Assembly (NCBI GenBank): GCA_036676985.1
Contig: JAKFBU010000028.1
Span: 1-64,000, forward strand
Source of the DNA: Candidatus Sericytochromatia bacterium
GTDB lineage: Bacteria > Cyanobacteriota > Sericytochromatia > S15B-MN24 > UBA4093
DNA: 64,000 nucleotides
Reading direction: 5' to 3'
Made by a program: the position numbers and the translations under genes. The notes below the pieces were generated by a model, which was given only the letters and a program-made list of their open reading frames with translations, did not search any database and was not told the origin of the DNA. Shown one piece after another: positions 17,118 to 24,010 of the stretch (the stretch's first letter is position 1; each line of letters begins with the position of its first letter).

Positions 17118-17224
17118 TCCAGCAGCTTCATACTGACGTGGTCCCATGATTTATGGTCTGAGGAGAAATTGAAGGTCCCGTAACTTGCTAAATTAGTTCA
17201 AGACTCTACGTGCGCGCTACTCGT

Positions 17225-17258
17225 CCCCCGCCTGCATTTGAGGCGGGGGCTGTTTTTT
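17225..17258 (+). terminator. Intrinsic terminator
   Basis: CCCCCGCCT-7-AGGCGGGGG followed by T run. Confidence 0.6.
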
Positions 17259-17329
17259 CTCCGAAACAGTGGGGGGCCTCGGAGTGGCTCGAGCTTGTGC
17301 TGACCCGAGGTTCAGGGGGATGTCAATAT

Positions 17330-18676
17330 TGCATGCTTCACGGCCAGGGCCGTGTAAGTCGCGCCATCGGCTTTACGGGTACTGCCGAGGTGAGGGCTGC
17401 CCTGGGCTTGGCCTGGGGCGACCCGGGCATCCCGAATAGCTGCTTCAGCGACTTCCAGGCCAGGCTCCTGAAGTACGACCCTGAGTGCGAGGCGTTCAAC
17501 CAGATGCTGTTGAGCCAGGGTCTTATCAAGAAGCGTGAGGCGCTGATCGTGGACGCCAGCCACATGGAGGCCAACGCCGCGGCGCACAACCCGAGGGTGC
17601 TGATCCGAAAGGCTACCCAGGCCATCCTCCGTCAGGTCCGCAAGGAGCGGCGCCATCTCTACGACGACTTGGCCAAGGCCATCGATCTCACCCCCGAGAC
17701 CAAGTTCTCGAGTGGACCCGAGTATTTCCTGTTGCCCGAGGCAGAGCGGAACGAACGCTTCAGCAAGGCCGTGACCGAGGCGCGCACGGTGATCGAGAAA
17801 CTGGAGCGTAAGAAGGTGAGTCCGGCCATCCGGAGTCAGGTCGAGCTCTTGAAGGTCATCCTGGATGAACGCTCGACCGACGAGGACGAGCCTATCGATC
17901 CGGACGACGCCCCACCCGACCGGGTCACCAGCCACCGGGATCCGGACGCGCGTTGGGGAGCCAAGGGAAAGGACAAGTACTTCCACGGATACAAGCGCAC
18001 GATCCTGACCACCAAGGACCACGGTTTCATCGCTAACGTGGACGTGGTAGCGGGCAACGCCACCGACAGCACACCGTTTGAAGCGATGCTCGAGGACAGC
18101 CAGGAGGTGTTCGGGCTCGAACCCGAGAAGGTCATTGGCGACGCGGCCTACGGGAGCCTGGCCAACCACCGCAAGCTCAAGGTCATGGGCATCCAGATGG
18201 TGGCCTCCCTCAAGCCCGCCCCCAATCCCAAGGGGCGCTTCTCGCGGAATCGCTTCAGCTACGATGCCGACAAGAAGTCGCTCTCGTGCCCCGGCGGCCA
18301 GACCACGCGAGAAGCCTATCCCAGCGCTGACGGCGAGGGGTTGACCTACCGATTCGCGGCCCACCAGTGTGGCCCCTGCAAGCACCGGGACGAGTGTACG
18401 CGGGGCGACTTCCGGAGCGTGAAGGTTGGCGAGACAGTGAAGGACATGGACGCCGCCATCGCCTACGGCAAGACCGACGACTACAAGGCGGACATGAAGG
18501 CCCGACCGGTGATCGAGGGAAAGCATTCCGAACTCGTGCGCTATCACGGCGGCCGGCGAACGCCCTACTGGACACTGTAACGAGTCTTTGCCGGAGAAGT
18601 CTGGCGCTGCCTGGTGGTGAACATCAAGCGGTGGGCGAAAGTAACGGCAAATAGCCCAATTCCGGCCGCCATATAG
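17330..18676 (+). pseudogene. IS1182-family transposase, 5'-degenerate with premature stop
   Basis: IVDASHMEANA, DPDARWG.K, GYK, GDAAYG, CPGG/C..C..R..C, R..IEGK; TAA at 18578-18580 followed in frame by RVFAGEVWRCLVVNIKRW...stop at 18676. Confidence 0.85.
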
Positions 18677-18910
18677 AGCGAAAGGGACGCTATCGCGCCC
18701 CTTTCCAGCGATCTATTCGGTTATCGATGCGACGGATCGCTTTGCGTCGCTCGGCCGCCTTTCGAGCGGTCAGCCGTTTTCGGCTATTACCAAAGCGGGA
18801 GGGGCGCCACGGCGCCCCTCCCCAACAATCTATTCGGTTATCGATGCGGTGGATCGCTCATCGCCGCTTGGCCGCCTACCAAGCTATCGGCCGTTTTCGG
18901 CTACTACCTT
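18677..18910 (+). repeat. Two tandem 117-bp imperfect repeats, each with four hairpins
   Basis: Copies 18677-18793 and 18794-18910 share ATCTATTCGGTTATCGATGCG and GCCGTTTTCGGCTA; stem differences are compensatory. Confidence 0.85.
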
Positions 18911-19019
18911 TACGGGCACCCGAGAGCACATAAGCCCTAAACTTCGCTACTTGGCAGGGGCTAAATCGCAAGAGTAATACGCGATCAAATCATTCTTCTC
19001 CGAACTTAGAAATCGAAAT

Positions 19020-20087
19020 TCATATTTTTGAATTCATGTTGGAGTTGATTTCTTTTAGTGCGGCAATAGTATCAATTCCAAGCCGCTTTAGTGACTCAAA
19101 TTCATCCTGCGATAAATAGGAGTCGATCTCATGTAGCTCTCGGTTAATTAATGGTGATAGCTGGCCAATCGCATCTTTTACGGAATTTGGTATTATGCCT
19201 GCATTGTTCAAGTGTCGAGAAAGTTGCCCGAGAGAAACGACCCGTGTGTTGGAAAACAATGCCGAGGCAGTTGCAAGCGAGCGCAACTCTGACTCAAGGC
19301 GAATCCGGATCAAGAGCAAAGCACTCTTGATGTCAAAATTATATATTTGAAATTCTTTTTGGATAAGTATTGATGGTCCGTATTTACTTTCAAGTTCAAC
19401 AGCTGATTCAAGTGCTGCTTTGTATGAGAAAGGCTCCCTAAAAAGGCGAATCTGACGAAATAATGTGCTTGATGAAGTAAATATCGATGCAGCTGCAATT
19501 GCTATTGAGGATATTGTAAAAAAGTCGAATACGTTTTTGTTTTGTTGCATGGGTCTTGAAAGCATTATGCTTTTTATGCCTGATAGTCTGCCGTTAATTG
19601 AAACTGGATCGTCGGATGGATTGTTTACGATAAAGCTCTTAAAAGAAAACCAATCTCCGGGATTTAAGAGTAGGGGTTGTAGCTCAAGTCGGTTTCCGTG
19701 CGAAAGATATAGTTTTGGGGAGAGATCTTTTGGACTCTTCTCGTTGACCACAGGTGGTTCCGGAAGCTGTCCAGAAAAATTGAAGACCAATGGGGCATCG
19801 AAGTCGGAACGATGGATTGGTTGGTTGCCATCATTTTTTACAACAAGCTGTAATGCAGTTAGCGACGATATCGTAGCGTCACCATACGTGATTCGAAGTC
19901 TTGAGATGTCGGTATTTCCAGCGATAATTGGAACCTCAGAGGCGAGAGAAATACTAAGTGAGCGCTTGTCTTGGCCGAGATAGAAAAAATAAAGTGAAAT
20001 GAATACTGACGGCACGATTGCTAGGACAATAGGCCACCAATTTTTTTTAAGAAATTCGATAAATTTTTCCACTTTTAGACCTACCAT
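19020..20087 (-). CDS. Membrane protein with C-terminal HEPN-like helical domain
   Basis: TM near residues 17-37 and 190-210; LLIRIRLESELRSL...L..L...GII...AI..L..LINRELH pattern. Confidence 0.6.
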   Translation of the reverse strand: MVGLKVEKFIEFLKKNWWPIVLAIVPSVFISLYFFYLGQDKRSLSISLASEVPIIAGNTDISRLRITYGDATISSLTALQLVVKNDGNQPIHRSDFDAPLVFNFSGQLPEPPVVNEKSPKDLSPKLYLSHGNRLELQPLLLNPGDWFSFKSFIVNNPSDDPVSINGRLSGIKSIMLSRPMQQNKNVFDFFTISSIAIAAASIFTSSSTLFRQIRLFREPFSYKAALESAVELESKYGPSILIQKEFQIYNFDIKSALLLIRIRLESELRSLATASALFSNTRVVSLGQLSRHLNNAGIIPNSVKDAIGQLSPLINRELHEIDSYLSQDEFESLKRLGIDTIAALKEINSNMNSKI

Positions 20088-20129
20088 GAATTCATGCCTG
20101 GGGTTTAGCCAGGGAGTGTTATATCCGAG

Positions 20130-20810
20130 CTAAATATAAAGAAACTTCAATTGTTCTGGCCAAAGTCTAGGTGAGCCGGCGGTCAATCGATATTCGAGAA
20201 ATTTGAGCATTGCTTTGGATGATTGAGAAAGGTGCTTAATCTTATAGGTGAGCCCAAAACTAGGGTTCTCAACGATTTCTGAGTAGGTCATATTTGTAGC
20301 TCGACCACTAGGATCATCGGGAATAAATATAGTGTCCCAATAAAAGTCTCTATTTCCTCGGAGGCCTTCAGCTATCCTCCCCTGGGTTACACCCTCGAAT
20401 ACGGATACACTTTGACCGTCACAATAAGCGACGACGGCCTTCGCACAGGCCCGACGGTTTATGGATGAAGTTTCGCGTACAAAGTTTTCCTTAAGGGTGT
20501 TCCACATTGGCTTTGTGAGCCCGCCAGGAAATCCTTGTTCCAAATATTCCTCAAAAATTAACCCTGCATGCTCAACAATACAAGGGACTCTTATTTTCTT
20601 ATACGCATCTATTACTTCTGCTATTACTAACTTCTCTAACTCAACTTCTAACGTCTCTTTTATAGATACTTCTCTGATGTCGAATTCAAATACTTCCGAA
20701 ACGGTTTTACCGTTGTTTAGTGTGCAATTTTTTTGGAATTCAAGATTTTCTTGTTTCTTGAATCTACTTGAGGTGACATAGGTTATTCTGTGCTTGGGGC
20801 TATTATACAT
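20130..20810 (-). CDS. Divergent HAM1/ITPase family protein (KomB-like)
   Basis: VTSS..K..E, IVEHAGL, FPGGLTK, FEG.TQGRI, FYWDTIFIP, TYSEI, LSQSSKAM align to the HAM1 scaffold. Confidence 0.85.
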   Translation of the reverse strand: MYNSPKHRITYVTSSRFKKQENLEFQKNCTLNNGKTVSEVFEFDIREVSIKETLEVELEKLVIAEVIDAYKKIRVPCIVEHAGLIFEEYLEQGFPGGLTKPMWNTLKENFVRETSSINRRACAKAVVAYCDGQSVSVFEGVTQGRIAEGLRGNRDFYWDTIFIPDDPSGRATNMTYSEIVENPSFGLTYKIKHLSQSSKAMLKFLEYRLTAGSPRLWPEQLKFLYI

Positions 20811-21643
20811 TACGCACCTCGCAGTTCCCGGAGGATATTTGTTATATCCTCCTCCATACTGCCACCTCTAATCGGAATGACGTCGATATTTCGAGCCCTG
20901 AATAGCTCAATTTCAAAATTCGATGGATCAGGGACTACAATATAGGCCCTGCGCCCTGTTCCAGGTAATGGTGAATTCTGAAATTTTTCATTTACAAGCC
21001 GGAATAGGTATGAGACGTTCCAATCTCTGAAACTATACCCCAGAAATAAGATTACTCTACCAAGTACATCAGCACTTAATCGGTAATCCATAGGCGAGTC
21101 CAATTTCAATCTCGTTTCGTAATCAGATTCGGATAAGACCATCGTTTCAGGGTGGTTCATGTCGCCATGAAATTTAATTATTTCAGCAATATCTGTCTGA
21201 AAACCCATATCTTGTTCCATTGCGACTACGCGAAATTCACGTTCATTCAGCTGAAAACTGCGCTCAATGAAGTTATCGTAATTAGTTGTATAAAATAGGT
21301 TGCACTTATTAAGCAAGGCGAGTTCAGTGTGGATGCTAGAGCTTAATAGGGCCTGTGACGGGGGATTCATATTTGAGTGAAGCCAAATAGTTAGCGGCGT
21401 AAATCCTCGGCTAATTATCCTAAAATATTCGAGTATTTGTAAATCAGTACCGCGAGCTCTAAGCAGTTCCGGCTCAGAAAAACCCATAATCCTTGCAGCT
21501 TCGTCTACGAGTTCGGTCCAATTAGGCCCCGTCTTAGTCATGCCATCCAATTCCCAAGAGACGGACGCAGAGATACCGGCTCCCACAAATACAATTAAGC
21601 GGCCTTCATGGTATCGAGACTTCAGATCGACAGGACATCTCAT
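20810..21643 (-). CDS. SIR2-like (SIR2_2) NADase-type protein (KomC-like)
   Basis: FVGAGIS, PNW..L, TTNYD, KFHGD, VLSESDY, LFLGYSFRD. Confidence 0.9.
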   Translation of the reverse strand: MRCPVDLKSRYHEGRLIVFVGAGISASVSWELDGMTKTGPNWTELVDEAARIMGFSEPELLRARGTDLQILEYFRIISRGFTPLTIWLHSNMNPPSQALLSSSIHTELALLNKCNLFYTTNYDNFIERSFQLNEREFRVVAMEQDMGFQTDIAEIIKFHGDMNHPETMVLSESDYETRLKLDSPMDYRLSADVLGRVILFLGYSFRDWNVSYLFRLVNEKFQNSPLPGTGRRAYIVVPDPSNFEIELFRARNIDVIPIRGGSMEEDITNILRELRGA

Positions 21644-21645
21644 AT

Positions 21646-22251
21646 CTAAGGCTTTCGTGCAATTATCCGCGTCATGGAATGCAAATGTTGTATCCGATTA
21701 TGCGGGTGCGTTTCAATAAGGTCTGAGTCCGAGCTTTCGAGAAGATGCCAGTCACTGAATAATTCTACGTATGCGCTATGGGGAATGAGACATGGATCAA
21801 AGTCTGGATGTGCTGTTTCGAGCTCCTGGTGTCGATCGTTGAAGGCACAAAGGACGACATAGCCACCCTGTCGCGTCGCATTTTTTATCTTTTTGGTGAC
21901 GCTTTTGATCTCGAATGCTGTGGACATGCAGTGAAGAAGTCCATATGCAATAACCACATCATACATTCTCTTAATATAAGCATCCCTTATGTCTAACACT
22001 TCCCAGTCTATAGGTATATCTTTCCAATTCAATTTTGCGTTAGATATTGCAAAATGAGAAACGTCTAATGCTCTTACTGCGGCGCCTTTTTGATGACAAT
22101 AGACTGCATTTTTCCCTTCACCGCAGCCGATATCTAGTATATGTGTGTTTTCTAGTGGCGTATAGTGTTCAAGTTTCTTGAGGAGGCTTCCTGGATCAGT
22201 GCCCCAAAAACATGGACAGACTTCATAGCCTTTGTCATAGCCTCCAGACAT
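21646..22251 (-). CDS. Class I SAM-dependent methyltransferase (TehB-like)
   Basis: ILDIGCGEGKNA, ALDVS, YDVVIAYGLLH, GGYVV; ATG 22251 lies 1 bp after upstream stop. Confidence 0.9.
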   Translation of the reverse strand: MSGGYDKGYEVCPCFWGTDPGSLLKKLEHYTPLENTHILDIGCGEGKNAVYCHQKGAAVRALDVSHFAISNAKLNWKDIPIDWEVLDIRDAYIKRMYDVVIAYGLLHCMSTAFEIKSVTKKIKNATRQGGYVVLCAFNDRHQELETAHPDFDPCLIPHSAYVELFSDWHLLESSDSDLIETHPHNRIQHLHSMTRIIARKP

Positions 22252-22252
22252 C

Positions 22253-23785
22253 TTACTTCCTTTCAATGCCTATTTCTTTCATTAGTTGGTTTATTGCTTT
22301 GTGGTACATAGATTTTCCGATCCAGTTGTATAAAACGGCGTCGGAATCCGAGATCATATCTTGAACATCTTGTTCAACGGGGGAGTTGCGTAGCATTAGG
22401 TAGTTTTCTATATGTATAGCCTGGTCTTCCCTTTCGCTATAAAGGTTATATGCCAAGTCTGGCGGGGCGTATACATAGAGAAGGCCGATCTTTAAGGGGC
22501 CTGCAATTCTACGTAATGAATCTAGGGTCGATTTTTGGCGAATTCCGTCGATAAGTACGCGCTCCGAACCAGAGGAGATGGCTTCTTCATAGAGTGCTTC
22601 GGCGAGTATTTCAGGCCCCTCGTCCGCTGAAATAAAATTCCAGGCAATTTCCTGAAATCTTCCTCGGGGTGTTTCTGGAACCGGTGCAATGTTAAGGATC
22701 CTTGCAAGCGTTCGCCCGCTGTTTACTTCAGTATATCCATATTTCGTACTAAGAATTCTTGTTGCTTCTGATTTGCCGCTGCCGATGCCTCCAATTACGC
22801 ATAAGATATGAGGGGGCTTTAATTTGGAGCGTTTTTGTATGCGATAGAAGGGCTGTGATGAGGTGGCCTTCGCGAAGAAAGTCCGGAGGCAGAGTTGCGA
22901 CCAGTATTCAAAATTCCAGAATAAATATGGGTCTGATGATGGATCTAACCACCGCAAGTGGGTAATCGACGTTTCACCGCGCCGCGGATTATCCCACTCT
23001 ATGTCGTCGCTTACATCATATTTGAAGACGAATCCGATGTGTTTCCTACCAGTAGACGAAGAGTCATCATTAATAATGCCAACCATTTTTAGGCGGTTTG
23101 GATCATTGAGTAAGTAAATGTCCTTTTGTGGTAATTTAAGTTCTTCGATAAGCTCGCGAATTGCGTTATGCTTAATCCCAAAATCTGCGTACGAAAAAAT
23201 GTTTCTGTCACGCTCTGTTACGTGGCCGCCAAAGCCAATACAATGGCTTCCTCTAAGATATTGTTCGACCCGATTGAAATTCCCGCGTTTATAGGCCAGC
23301 ACGCGGTCGCCTTTAGTTACCATTATGTAAGTTATAACCTGTTTATAGCTTTCATCTTGTTCCGCAGTAAGACGGTCAATATATTTAAATGGTTGGGCGG
23401 TCATGAGCGTTGAGTAAAGGCTTTCCCATTCTCTCATAACGCCTTGAGAACGGCTGTTGGCTAATAGCCATTCTGATGGAATAGCTAGCACGATCTCCGG
23501 TATCCGCTTCGGCTTTAATCGTGGTGCTTCATATATTGTTGTAGAGTCTGAAGCTAAGCGCCGAAGGAAGAATATGCCAGGCTCTGTTCTGACAAAGGCT
23601 GACGCCAATCCCTTTCGAATTATGTCAGTGCAAAGTTTGGAGCTTAATGTTTGATGGGGCGCCTTACCTGTGATTTTGTCTGAAAAGAGGTTGTTTCGGA
23701 ACGCAAGTTCGATCATTTCCTTACAACTCATTGGCCGCTTGTGCTGTTCGAGAAGGCGCTCTGCTACGTCAAGAAATTCGCTCAT
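22253..23785 (-). CDS. HARE-HTH + NUDIX-like (YmaB/COG4112-type) + P-loop nucleotide-kinase fusion
   Basis: FLDVAERLL...GKAPHQTLSS...F.RTEPGIFFL; AEQDESYKQVITY, GFGGHV, RELIEEL, INDD, WSQ; GGIGSGKS, TPR..FQ, IDGIR. Confidence 0.85.
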   Translation of the reverse strand: MSEFLDVAERLLEQHKRPMSCKEMIELAFRNNLFSDKITGKAPHQTLSSKLCTDIIRKGLASAFVRTEPGIFFLRRLASDSTTIYEAPRLKPKRIPEIVLAIPSEWLLANSRSQGVMREWESLYSTLMTAQPFKYIDRLTAEQDESYKQVITYIMVTKGDRVLAYKRGNFNRVEQYLRGSHCIGFGGHVTERDRNIFSYADFGIKHNAIRELIEELKLPQKDIYLLNDPNRLKMVGIINDDSSSTGRKHIGFVFKYDVSDDIEWDNPRRGETSITHLRWLDPSSDPYLFWNFEYWSQLCLRTFFAKATSSQPFYRIQKRSKLKPPHILCVIGGIGSGKSEATRILSTKYGYTEVNSGRTLARILNIAPVPETPRGRFQEIAWNFISADEGPEILAEALYEEAISSGSERVLIDGIRQKSTLDSLRRIAGPLKIGLLYVYAPPDLAYNLYSEREDQAIHIENYLMLRNSPVEQDVQDMISDSDAVLYNWIGKSMYHKAINQLMKEIGIERK

Positions 23786-23821
23786 GAGTAAAGCCTTTGA
23801 ATAGGATGATCTATGATGTCA

Positions 23822-23888
23822 TTAATTTCATACCCGGCTCTAACACTAAGTTTTCCTCTTAATGTCAAGTTTTAGTTAATGAAATTAA
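23822..23888 (-). promoter_or_regulatory. Putative island promoter/operator
   Basis: Perfect TTGACA on minus strand (23863-23868) between a 10-bp inverted repeat TTAATTTCAT / ATGAAATTAA; no clean -10 at 17 bp. Confidence 0.35.
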
Positions 23889-24010
23889 ATTACATCGGAG
23901 TTATTTTGAGCGCATGAACTCCCCGGGCGCGGACAGTACAGATAATGAGGTCAAGTTCGCAGGCTGTTTGGGCAAATGCTGTCCTGCCTTGAGACTCGGA
24001 CTGCCTTATT

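Follow-up and report, generated by a model that had tools for sequence, protein, structure and literature searches.

The 64,000-nucleotide stretch analysed here (the window; positions 1 to 64,000 of the forward strand of contig JAKFBU010000028.1, assembly GCA_036676985.1, Candidatus Sericytochromatia bacterium) carries a gene for a HAM1 homologue that lacks the catalytic Asp of the inosine triphosphatases (ITPases) and departs from them at three further motifs. What is such a protein for and, if it binds a nucleotide, which one? An initial annotation proposed a non-hydrolysing sensor tuned to a base other than inosine, with a methylated ligand made by a neighbouring enzyme. The comparisons presented here point to an uncharacterised Kongming variant with a KomB-family sensor. 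Judged from its sequence relatives, the HAM1 protein is probably the ligand-sensing, non-hydrolysing subunit of a HAM1-SIR2 effector in a four-gene, horizontally mobile, Kongming-like abortive-infection system. The gene and its altered motifs lie as follows.

20130..20810, minus strand: putative KomB-like HAM1 sensor, 226 residues (Pfam PF01725, PDB and fold matches)
20766-20774: motif TSS, residues 13-15
20559-20573: motif EHAGL, residues 80-84, with H81 at the catalytic Asp position
20325-20345: motif FYWDTIF, residues 156-162
20211-20231: motif LSQSSKA, residues 194-200

Re-reading of the open reading frame confirmed that all four motif changes are real and lie at these positions. The protein belongs to the HAM1/ITPase superfamily (Pfam Ham1p_like, 63.2 bits at a cut-off of 22.5), and H81 stands where the active pyrophosphatases RdgB and ITPA have the catalytic Asp of (E/D)D(S/T)G. 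Its scores with the five NCBIfam ITPase models that it matched all stay under the curated thresholds (best 73.2 vs 203 bits), and PADLOC (2023) holds no model for it. The genome has its own RdgB on another contig (206.9 bits), with canonical TTN..K, DDSG, FGYDP and SHR motifs, and the HAM1 studied here is thus an extra, divergent copy carried on an island. Its sequence recurs widely. A word-indexed search returned 1027 proteins at E <= 0.001, of which the best 120 are about 56-62% identical. Fifteen aligned homologues all share H81, F156, Y157, W158, D159, S195 and S197, and conservation of S15 and Q196 reaches at least 90%. The odd residue states were also recovered by a pattern-free HMMER search. 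Since the substitutions are conserved across a large clade, they represent a selected state and neither chance nor decay; conservation across phyla led us to reject a pseudogene.

Very likely, this HAM1 serves as a KomB-type sensor to a KomC-type effector. Zeng et al. (bioRxiv 10.1101/2024.12.20.629578) describe KomB as a HAM1 without catalytic activity that binds deoxyinosine triphosphate (dITP) and activates KomC; in their account defensive HAM1s, which invariably have His for the catalytic Asp, are signal sensors for a SIR2 effector. The closest PDB sequence matches of the window protein are KomB 8zsg (E 2.1e-23) and the KomBC entry 9v0g (E 1e-22), and both chains carry VEH(T/G)(G/A)L at the catalytic site. 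With its AlphaFold2 model (predicted local distance difference test, pLDDT, 95.1), Foldseek returned 8zsg_E first (E 2.7e-16, template-modelling score 0.85 normalised to the target), followed by 9xvc_A and 9v0g_A; ITPase structures rank under the KomB chains (E 1e-13 to 1e-8). Identity to KomB in the fold alignment is about 32%.

The same assignment is supported by a survey of related loci, collected by three motif-pattern scans of a species-representative genome collection, with neighbours and two KomA queries searched by tblastn. The resulting alignment of 227 HAM1s holds 60 methyltransferase-linked, 45 KomA-linked, 51 SIR2-only and 71 proteins without SIR2; one scan pattern also admitted FGWDP, which brought in mostly housekeeping HAM1s (Patescibacteria, archaea) that served as the comparison set without SIR2. 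Asp is found at the catalytic column in none of the 156 SIR2-linked HAM1s (His in 149, Gln in 7) and in 70/71 of those without SIR2; the methyltransferase-linked group has His throughout (60/60). A FastTree phylogeny was built from 135 rows (60/60 methyltransferase-linked, 25/45 KomA-linked, 38/51 SIR2-only and 12/71 without SIR2, the genome's own RdgB among them). In it the defensive HAM1s split into two clades, in agreement with Zeng et al. The window HAM1 is placed within the group of 123 SIR2-linked rows and belongs to clade 2 (support 96), although the split of that group from housekeeping proteins has a support of 84 only. Its own clade of 63 rows is supported at 99, on a stem 1.04 changes per column long; a methyltransferase accompanies 58 of these rows, and the other five are truncated or degraded loci.

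His at the catalytic position, an adjacent KomC-type SIR2 and the grouping in the tree are all features of a defensive, KomB-like HAM1. The non-hydrolysing sensor of the initial annotation is therefore well founded, although not new: it is already published for defensive HAM1s, and KomB with the same His is reported to have no hydrolytic activity (Zeng et al.; Li et al. 2026, PMC13454610). H81, the headline change of that annotation, is thus a known signature of the family.

Two side observations concern these columns in other HAM1s. In 7 of the 45 KomA-linked KomBs the catalytic Asp position holds Gln, not His (VEQT[CG]L), in contrast to the wording of the preprint, where His is invariable; these come from a Zymomonas plasmid (locus L013) and from sphingomonads (L178, L179, L183, L218, L224, L232). 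The housekeeping HAM1s of Patescibacteria, DPANN archaea and others (L087-L157) mostly have SMR, not SHR. At the column of the SHR His, the HAM1s without SIR2 have Met in 62/71 and His in 5/71, and they keep the Arg in 67/71. The frequent Met in proteins that keep the Asp indicates that the His of SHR is not a general requirement and that the Arg is the conserved residue.

A sensor needs partners, and three genes lie head to tail with HAM1 on the minus strand of a 5-kb island, in the order 510-residue protein, methyltransferase, SIR2, HAM1.

20810..21643, minus strand: predicted KomC-like SIR2 NAD+ hydrolase (NADase) effector, 277 residues (Pfam SIR2_2, 94.4 bits)
21646..22266, minus strand: class I S-adenosylmethionine (SAM)-dependent methyltransferase, TehB-like small-molecule type, 206 residues (Pfam Methyltransf_25, TehB)
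22253..23785, minus strand: HARE-HTH/Nudix-like/nucleoside monophosphate (NMP)-kinase-like protein, 510 residues, three domains
residues ~4-76 of the latter: HARE-HTH (Pfam)
residues ~91-300: TM1382-like Nudix fold (family profile vs PDB 3e57, TM1382, E 1.4e-15)
residues ~320-500: AdkA/adenylate-kinase-like P-loop kinase (profile vs PDB 3lw7, E 3.3e-13)

SIR2 is translationally coupled to HAM1: its stop codon shares one base with the start codon of the latter (TAATG). In 13/16 long representatives scanned the two proteins are fused. The SIR2 protein matches KomC (8zsf) over its full length (E 3.1e-37, residues 8-269) and a PADLOC ThsA-type SIR2 (E 5.1e-25). An alignment of 37 homologues shows no variation at N121, H159 or D207. 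The last two are the counterparts of H146 and D194, which KomC needs both for defence and for its NADase activity (Zeng et al.); the SIR2 protein thus has both the catalytic His and the immune-clade Asp of the anti-phage SIR2 NADase effectors KomC, ThsA and DSR.

These four genes travel together. In the clade defined by FYWD, 69 loci were found. The four genes are intact in 51 of them; a contig end truncates another 6, frameshifts affect 6, and the last 6 are remnants. A homologue of the methyltransferase lies beside SIR2-HAM1 in 51/51 intact cassettes, and in none of the 69 loci does an intact HAM1-SIR2 pair lack the other two. Methyltransferase, SIR2 and HAM1 always follow one another in this order; the gene for the 510-residue protein lies upstream of them on their strand in 36 loci and at another nearby place in 15. 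Many phyla are represented among the hosts, including Acidobacteriota, Pseudomonadota, Actinomycetota, Bacteroidota, Verrucomicrobiota, Nitrospirota and Myxococcota. KomA, the adenosine deaminase that marks canonical Kongming, had no tblastn match with either of two queries in any of the 69 loci, the window cassette included. The FQWDC-type KomB loci (n=80) have SIR2 in all 80 and KomA in 43, and a homologue of the methyltransferase or of the 510-residue protein in 0/80. One locus, from a Kiritimatiellia metagenome-assembled genome (L009), has the four genes broken into several frames, through either decay of the cassette or indel errors in the assembly.

The remaining question is what the sensor reads. 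In KomB, H11, F140, Q141 and R168 read the hypoxanthine of dITP and R8 and K49 touch the phosphates, and Q141, K49, R8, F140 and W142 are essential by mutation (Li et al. 2026). We mapped these contacts onto the window HAM1 by alignment, with canonical KomABC loci taken from plasmids. Each line below gives the KomB residue, its equivalent in HAM1 and, for six columns, the states in the 60 methyltransferase-linked and the 45 KomA-linked proteins.

R/K8: S14
N9: S15; Ser in 54/60 methyltransferase-linked, Asn in 44/45 KomA-linked
H11: F17; Phe or Tyr in 53/60 methyltransferase-linked, His in 30/45 KomA-linked
K12: K18, kept
E15: E21, kept
Q38 (ExQ motif): Leu
K49: E65
H65: H81, kept
T66: A82; Ala in 58/60 methyltransferase-linked, Thr in 44/45 KomA-linked
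F140: F156, kept
Q141: Y157; Tyr in 58/60 methyltransferase-linked, Gln in 45/45 KomA-linked
W142: W158, kept
S166-M167-R168: S195-Q196-S197
M167 column: Gln in 60/60 methyltransferase-linked, Met in 45/45 KomA-linked
R168 column: Ser in 58/60 and Ala in 2/60 methyltransferase-linked, Arg in 45/45 KomA-linked

Three of the four hypoxanthine-reading residues are replaced (H11 by F17, Q141 by Y157 and R168 by S197), as are both mutation-tested phosphate contacts, R8 and K49. Of the dITP contacts R8, H11, K49, T66, F140, Q141, W142 and R168, only F140 and W142 are kept, and the residue set of canonical Kongming is thus not preserved in this HAM1. The ExQ Gln is retained by all KomA-linked HAM1s (100%) and by 97% of the housekeeping ones, and is Leu in 98% of the methyltransferase-linked ones. 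The altered pocket comprises S15, F17, L54, E65, A82, Y157, Q196 and S197, and a conserved insertion (G186-L-x-Y-K190) lies directly before SQS; the protein also has a C-terminal extension. The columns of N9 (S15), H11, M167 and R168 (SQS), like the neighbouring genes, were absent from every search pattern.

A base other than inosine, as the initial annotation had it, would be hard to maintain if dITP-binding KomB showed the same changes. One of the four motif changes is indeed shared, that at the catalytic site (VEHTGL in KomB); the other three are not, as KomB keeps the TGN Asn (N9), FQWDC in place of FYWD, and SMR, with its Arg, in place of SQS. With only one change in common the proposal survives, and it gains support from the replacement of H11, Q141 and R168. 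Zeng et al. state that defensive HAM1s retain conserved nucleotide-binding residues; in the alignment columns this does not hold for the FYWD clade at the Asn, Gln and Arg positions. It is thus reasonable to think, from the aligned residues, that on balance the ligand is something other than dITP. The dead-sensor element is already published, and the part specific to the pocket appears to be new in detail and is well supported by the comparative evidence.

Several points weigh against this interpretation. The retrieval patterns contained FYWD and VEHAGL, and the FxWD and VEHxGL columns are therefore partly conserved by construction. The phylogeny is a FastTree tree only, built on a subsample and with long-branch warnings. 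The argument for a ligand other than dITP comes from aligned substitutions and not from a modelled pocket, and the K49 column is Glu in only 34/60 methyltransferase-linked HAM1s, with Lys in 25/60. With the Arg gone, Q196 and the inserted K190 might take over its role and still read a 6-oxopurine. A sister four-gene cassette from Chitinophagaceae (L078:2068-6410 and L079) has a HARE-HTH/kinase protein of 494 residues, a TehB-like methyltransferase, SIR2 and a short HAM1 of 183 residues, and this HAM1 keeps the Asn, FQWDP and SQA. Y157 and S15 are thus not strictly tied to the methyltransferase, and loss of the Arg (SQ[SA]) tracks it better than either. The Archangium-type KomBC, solved in the 9v0g series, is without R168 or Q141, and neither KomA nor a methyltransferase is encoded near it; should its ligand be dITP, the argument from residues would be weakened. 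A literature search on the 9v0g-series structures found no relevant paper. More generally, we infer the ligand, the hydrolytic state, complex formation and anti-phage activity alike.

One alternative is that the HAM1 has remained a sensor of deaminated purines such as dITP or ITP, as canonical KomB is. In that case the methyltransferase and the Nudix/kinase protein would not make a new messenger but would have a part in regulation, in self-protection or in the supply of substrate. Besides a 6-oxo group read by Q196 or K190 and the N and FQWD of the sister type, it has in its favour the common fold and the retention of the stacking and ribose residues F156, W158 and D159 and of K18 and E21. Furthermore, Zeng et al. 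mention KomBC without KomA in association with SAM-dependent methyltransferases, NTPases and others, which may generate "dITP or other nucleotide-based" signals. Against it, deaminase matches were found in 0/69 loci, the Arg kept in all KomA-linked and in 67/71 housekeeping HAM1s is Ser or Ala in 60/60 methyltransferase-linked ones, the essential, base-reading Q141 is Tyr in nearly all of them, and the clade sits on a long stem. We consider a deaminated ligand unlikely.

Still less probable is that the HAM1 binds no small molecule and acts as a structural or allosteric partner of SIR2, with activation through contact with the HARE-HTH protein or a phage protein. The changes on the phosphate side (R8 to S14, N9 to S15 and, in the 34 proteins with Glu, K49 to E65) would fit such a role. 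However, K18, E21, E52, F156, Y157, W158, D159, S195 and Q196 are nearly invariant across phyla, which is hard to explain without a ligand, and three enzyme domains with conserved catalytic motifs (methyltransferase, Nudix-like and kinase-like) travel with the sensor. Finally, it is very improbable that the HAM1 is an active house-cleaning pyrophosphatase of altered specificity, removing for instance methylated nucleoside triphosphates made by its neighbour: the related Maf fold, chains of which are weak fold matches here, hydrolyses m5UTP, m5CTP and m7GTP (PMC3899018), but this indicates only that the fold superfamily can read methylated bases, and the alternative is opposed by a uniform His at the catalytic position that in KomB goes with no hydrolysis, by scores far below the NCBIfam cut-offs, by the constant coupling to a KomC-type SIR2 and by the normal RdgB of the genome.

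If, as we think, the HAM1 senses a nucleotide other than dITP, its neighbours are the obvious candidates for making it. The nearest folds of the methyltransferase (AlphaFold2 model, pLDDT 93.8) include TehB, echinomycin Ecm18, a M. tuberculosis heterocyclic-toxin methyltransferase, ToxA and UbiG. Among the fold matches listed there is no DNA methyltransferase, and a tRNA methyltransferase, METTL6, comes only at rank 37. The enzyme would accordingly seem to be of the small-molecule type, as far as the substrates of its nearest folds can be taken from structure titles and a modelled fold, and we propose that it helps to make the signal. A methylated ligand is plausible in that it would be consistent with the obligate link to such an enzyme.

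The 510-residue protein is proposed as the sensor and signal-synthesis component. In its family the Nudix-like domain has invariant GFGGH184-188, R210, E211, E214 and E215, and the kinase-like domain has an invariant P-loop (G332..G337-K338) and a conserved D413-G414-x-R416, which we take to resemble the DGFPR motif of adenylate kinases. The cassette could thus plausibly encode a route to a modified nucleotide that includes its own NMP-kinase-like step. The identity of that nucleotide, the role of the Nudix domain (substrate supply or signal removal) and the sensing of phage DNA by HARE-HTH we infer from the domains.

Stand-alone homologues of the TM1382-like Nudix domain are also encoded by phages. 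The 510-residue protein matches phrog_8902 (E 7.2e-23), and the phage proteins of this family are about 200-265 residues long (L241-L275, IMG/VR viral contigs; e.g., L243:5845-6510 and L245:5845-6642). One shares its contig with a nuclear-shell protein and a phage RNA-polymerase subunit, and another adjoins a thymidylate synthase. They might serve nucleotide metabolism or counter the signalling of the cassette.

The proposed mechanism would run as follows. Upon infection, perhaps detected through HARE-HTH as the likely input or DNA-sensing domain, the 510-residue protein and the methyltransferase would make a modified, possibly methylated, nucleotide, with the kinase domain of the cassette taking the place of the phage deoxynucleoside monophosphate (dNMP) kinase borrowed by canonical Kongming. 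A HAM1 dimer would bind this nucleotide without cleaving it and remodel the HAM1-SIR2 assembly, which would turn on NAD+ hydrolysis and stop phage replication. That the messenger is a methylated nucleotide made by the cassette is a tentative proposal, for which we would not claim an even chance. The broader scheme is put forward with similar reserve: a self-contained nucleotide-signalling immunity in which a methylated or otherwise non-deaminated messenger, made by the methyltransferase and the Nudix/NMP-kinase protein, is read by a rebuilt KomB-type pocket (F17, Y157, Y189, Q196, S197).

The setting of the cassette agrees with a mobile origin. Composition profiles and neighbouring genes define the following features.

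18950..24000, no strand: low-GC island, 36-49% G+C inside a genome of 62-75%
17210-18580, plus strand: insertion sequence (IS)-type DDE transposase (DDE_Tnp_1), left edge of the island
18677-18908: tandem pair of ~115-nucleotide repeats, 79% identical, left edge of the island
19020-20087, minus strand: predicted membrane protein, 355 residues, inside the island, 42 bases downstream of HAM1

No close HAM1 homologue was found in 40 related genomes searched, and the island was therefore probably acquired horizontally. The transposase and repeats may mark its route of arrival; no tRNA gene lies near the left edge. The island proteins include no deaminase family (Pfam), and a promoter and terminator scan gave fewer sites than in shuffled sequence. 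The membrane protein belongs to no Pfam, NCBIfam or PADLOC family. It was rejected as a fifth component, as it had no tblastn match in any other locus, and appears to be island cargo outside the conserved cassette, which might be a separate defence gene. In the L078 sister locus the four genes are followed by a D12-class N6-adenine DNA methyltransferase.

Kongming provides the precedent of a base-modified nucleotide, dITP, as an immune messenger. Here, a widespread clade spanning many phyla has kept the KomBC effector but has a methyltransferase and a Nudix/kinase protein where Kongming has the deaminase, and the sensor has changed in step at the residues that read the base. If the proposed scheme is true, it would add a second chemical class of base-modified immune messenger, for which no phage kinase is borrowed. 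Should the ligand prove to be another modified nucleotide, bacterial immunity would have in base modification a signalling code that is general and open to diversification; the code in use would be recorded in the pocket of the sensor, and four or five residues might suffice to predict it. The sensors of such cassettes might double as detectors of modified nucleotides.

Among known systems, the window cassette very probably falls, by its gene content, within the candidate KomBC subtypes of Zeng et al. As these authors name a methyltransferase among the KomBC associates, the subtype is probably already listed there as a candidate. Our literature search found no experimental test, characterisation or pocket analysis of a methyltransferase-type KomBC, and a search for HARE-HTH, Nudix and SIR2 combined did not find this architecture. 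The HAM1 shares its fold and Pfam family with the housekeeping ITPases RdgB, ITPA, MJ0226 and PH1917, but unlike them it is without the catalytic Asp, the TGN Asn, the ExQ Gln, the FG(W/Y)D Gly and the S(H/M)R Arg, and is linked to SIR2. It is closer to the Archangium-type KomBC (9v0g, "Helical structure of KomBC complex"), which also belongs to clade 2, has VEH and a SIR2 partner and lacks the SHR Arg. However, the Archangium-type HAM1 has 180 residues, the Asn, FHWDP and SPx, and its loci (L080-L085) have a DUF4388 protein and an Arf-like GTPase as neighbours in place of the methyltransferase and the kinase protein.

The closest characterised relative is the Kongming system KomA-KomB-KomC of E. 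coli NCTC13216 (PDB 8zsg, 8zsh, 8zsi, 9xvc; Zeng et al.; Li et al. 2026). As in its KomB, the window HAM1 combines the HAM1 fold and His for the catalytic Asp with an adjacent, co-evolving KomC-type SIR2 on a mobile island, and equivalents of K12, E15, F140, W142 and D143 are kept. It differs from KomB (184 residues) in its length, in the GLxYK insertion before the SHR-equivalent motif and in the C-terminal extension. KomA is replaced by the methyltransferase and the HARE-HTH/Nudix/kinase protein and, unlike Kongming, which depends on a phage dNMP kinase (Zeng et al.), the window cassette encodes an NMP-kinase-like domain of its own.

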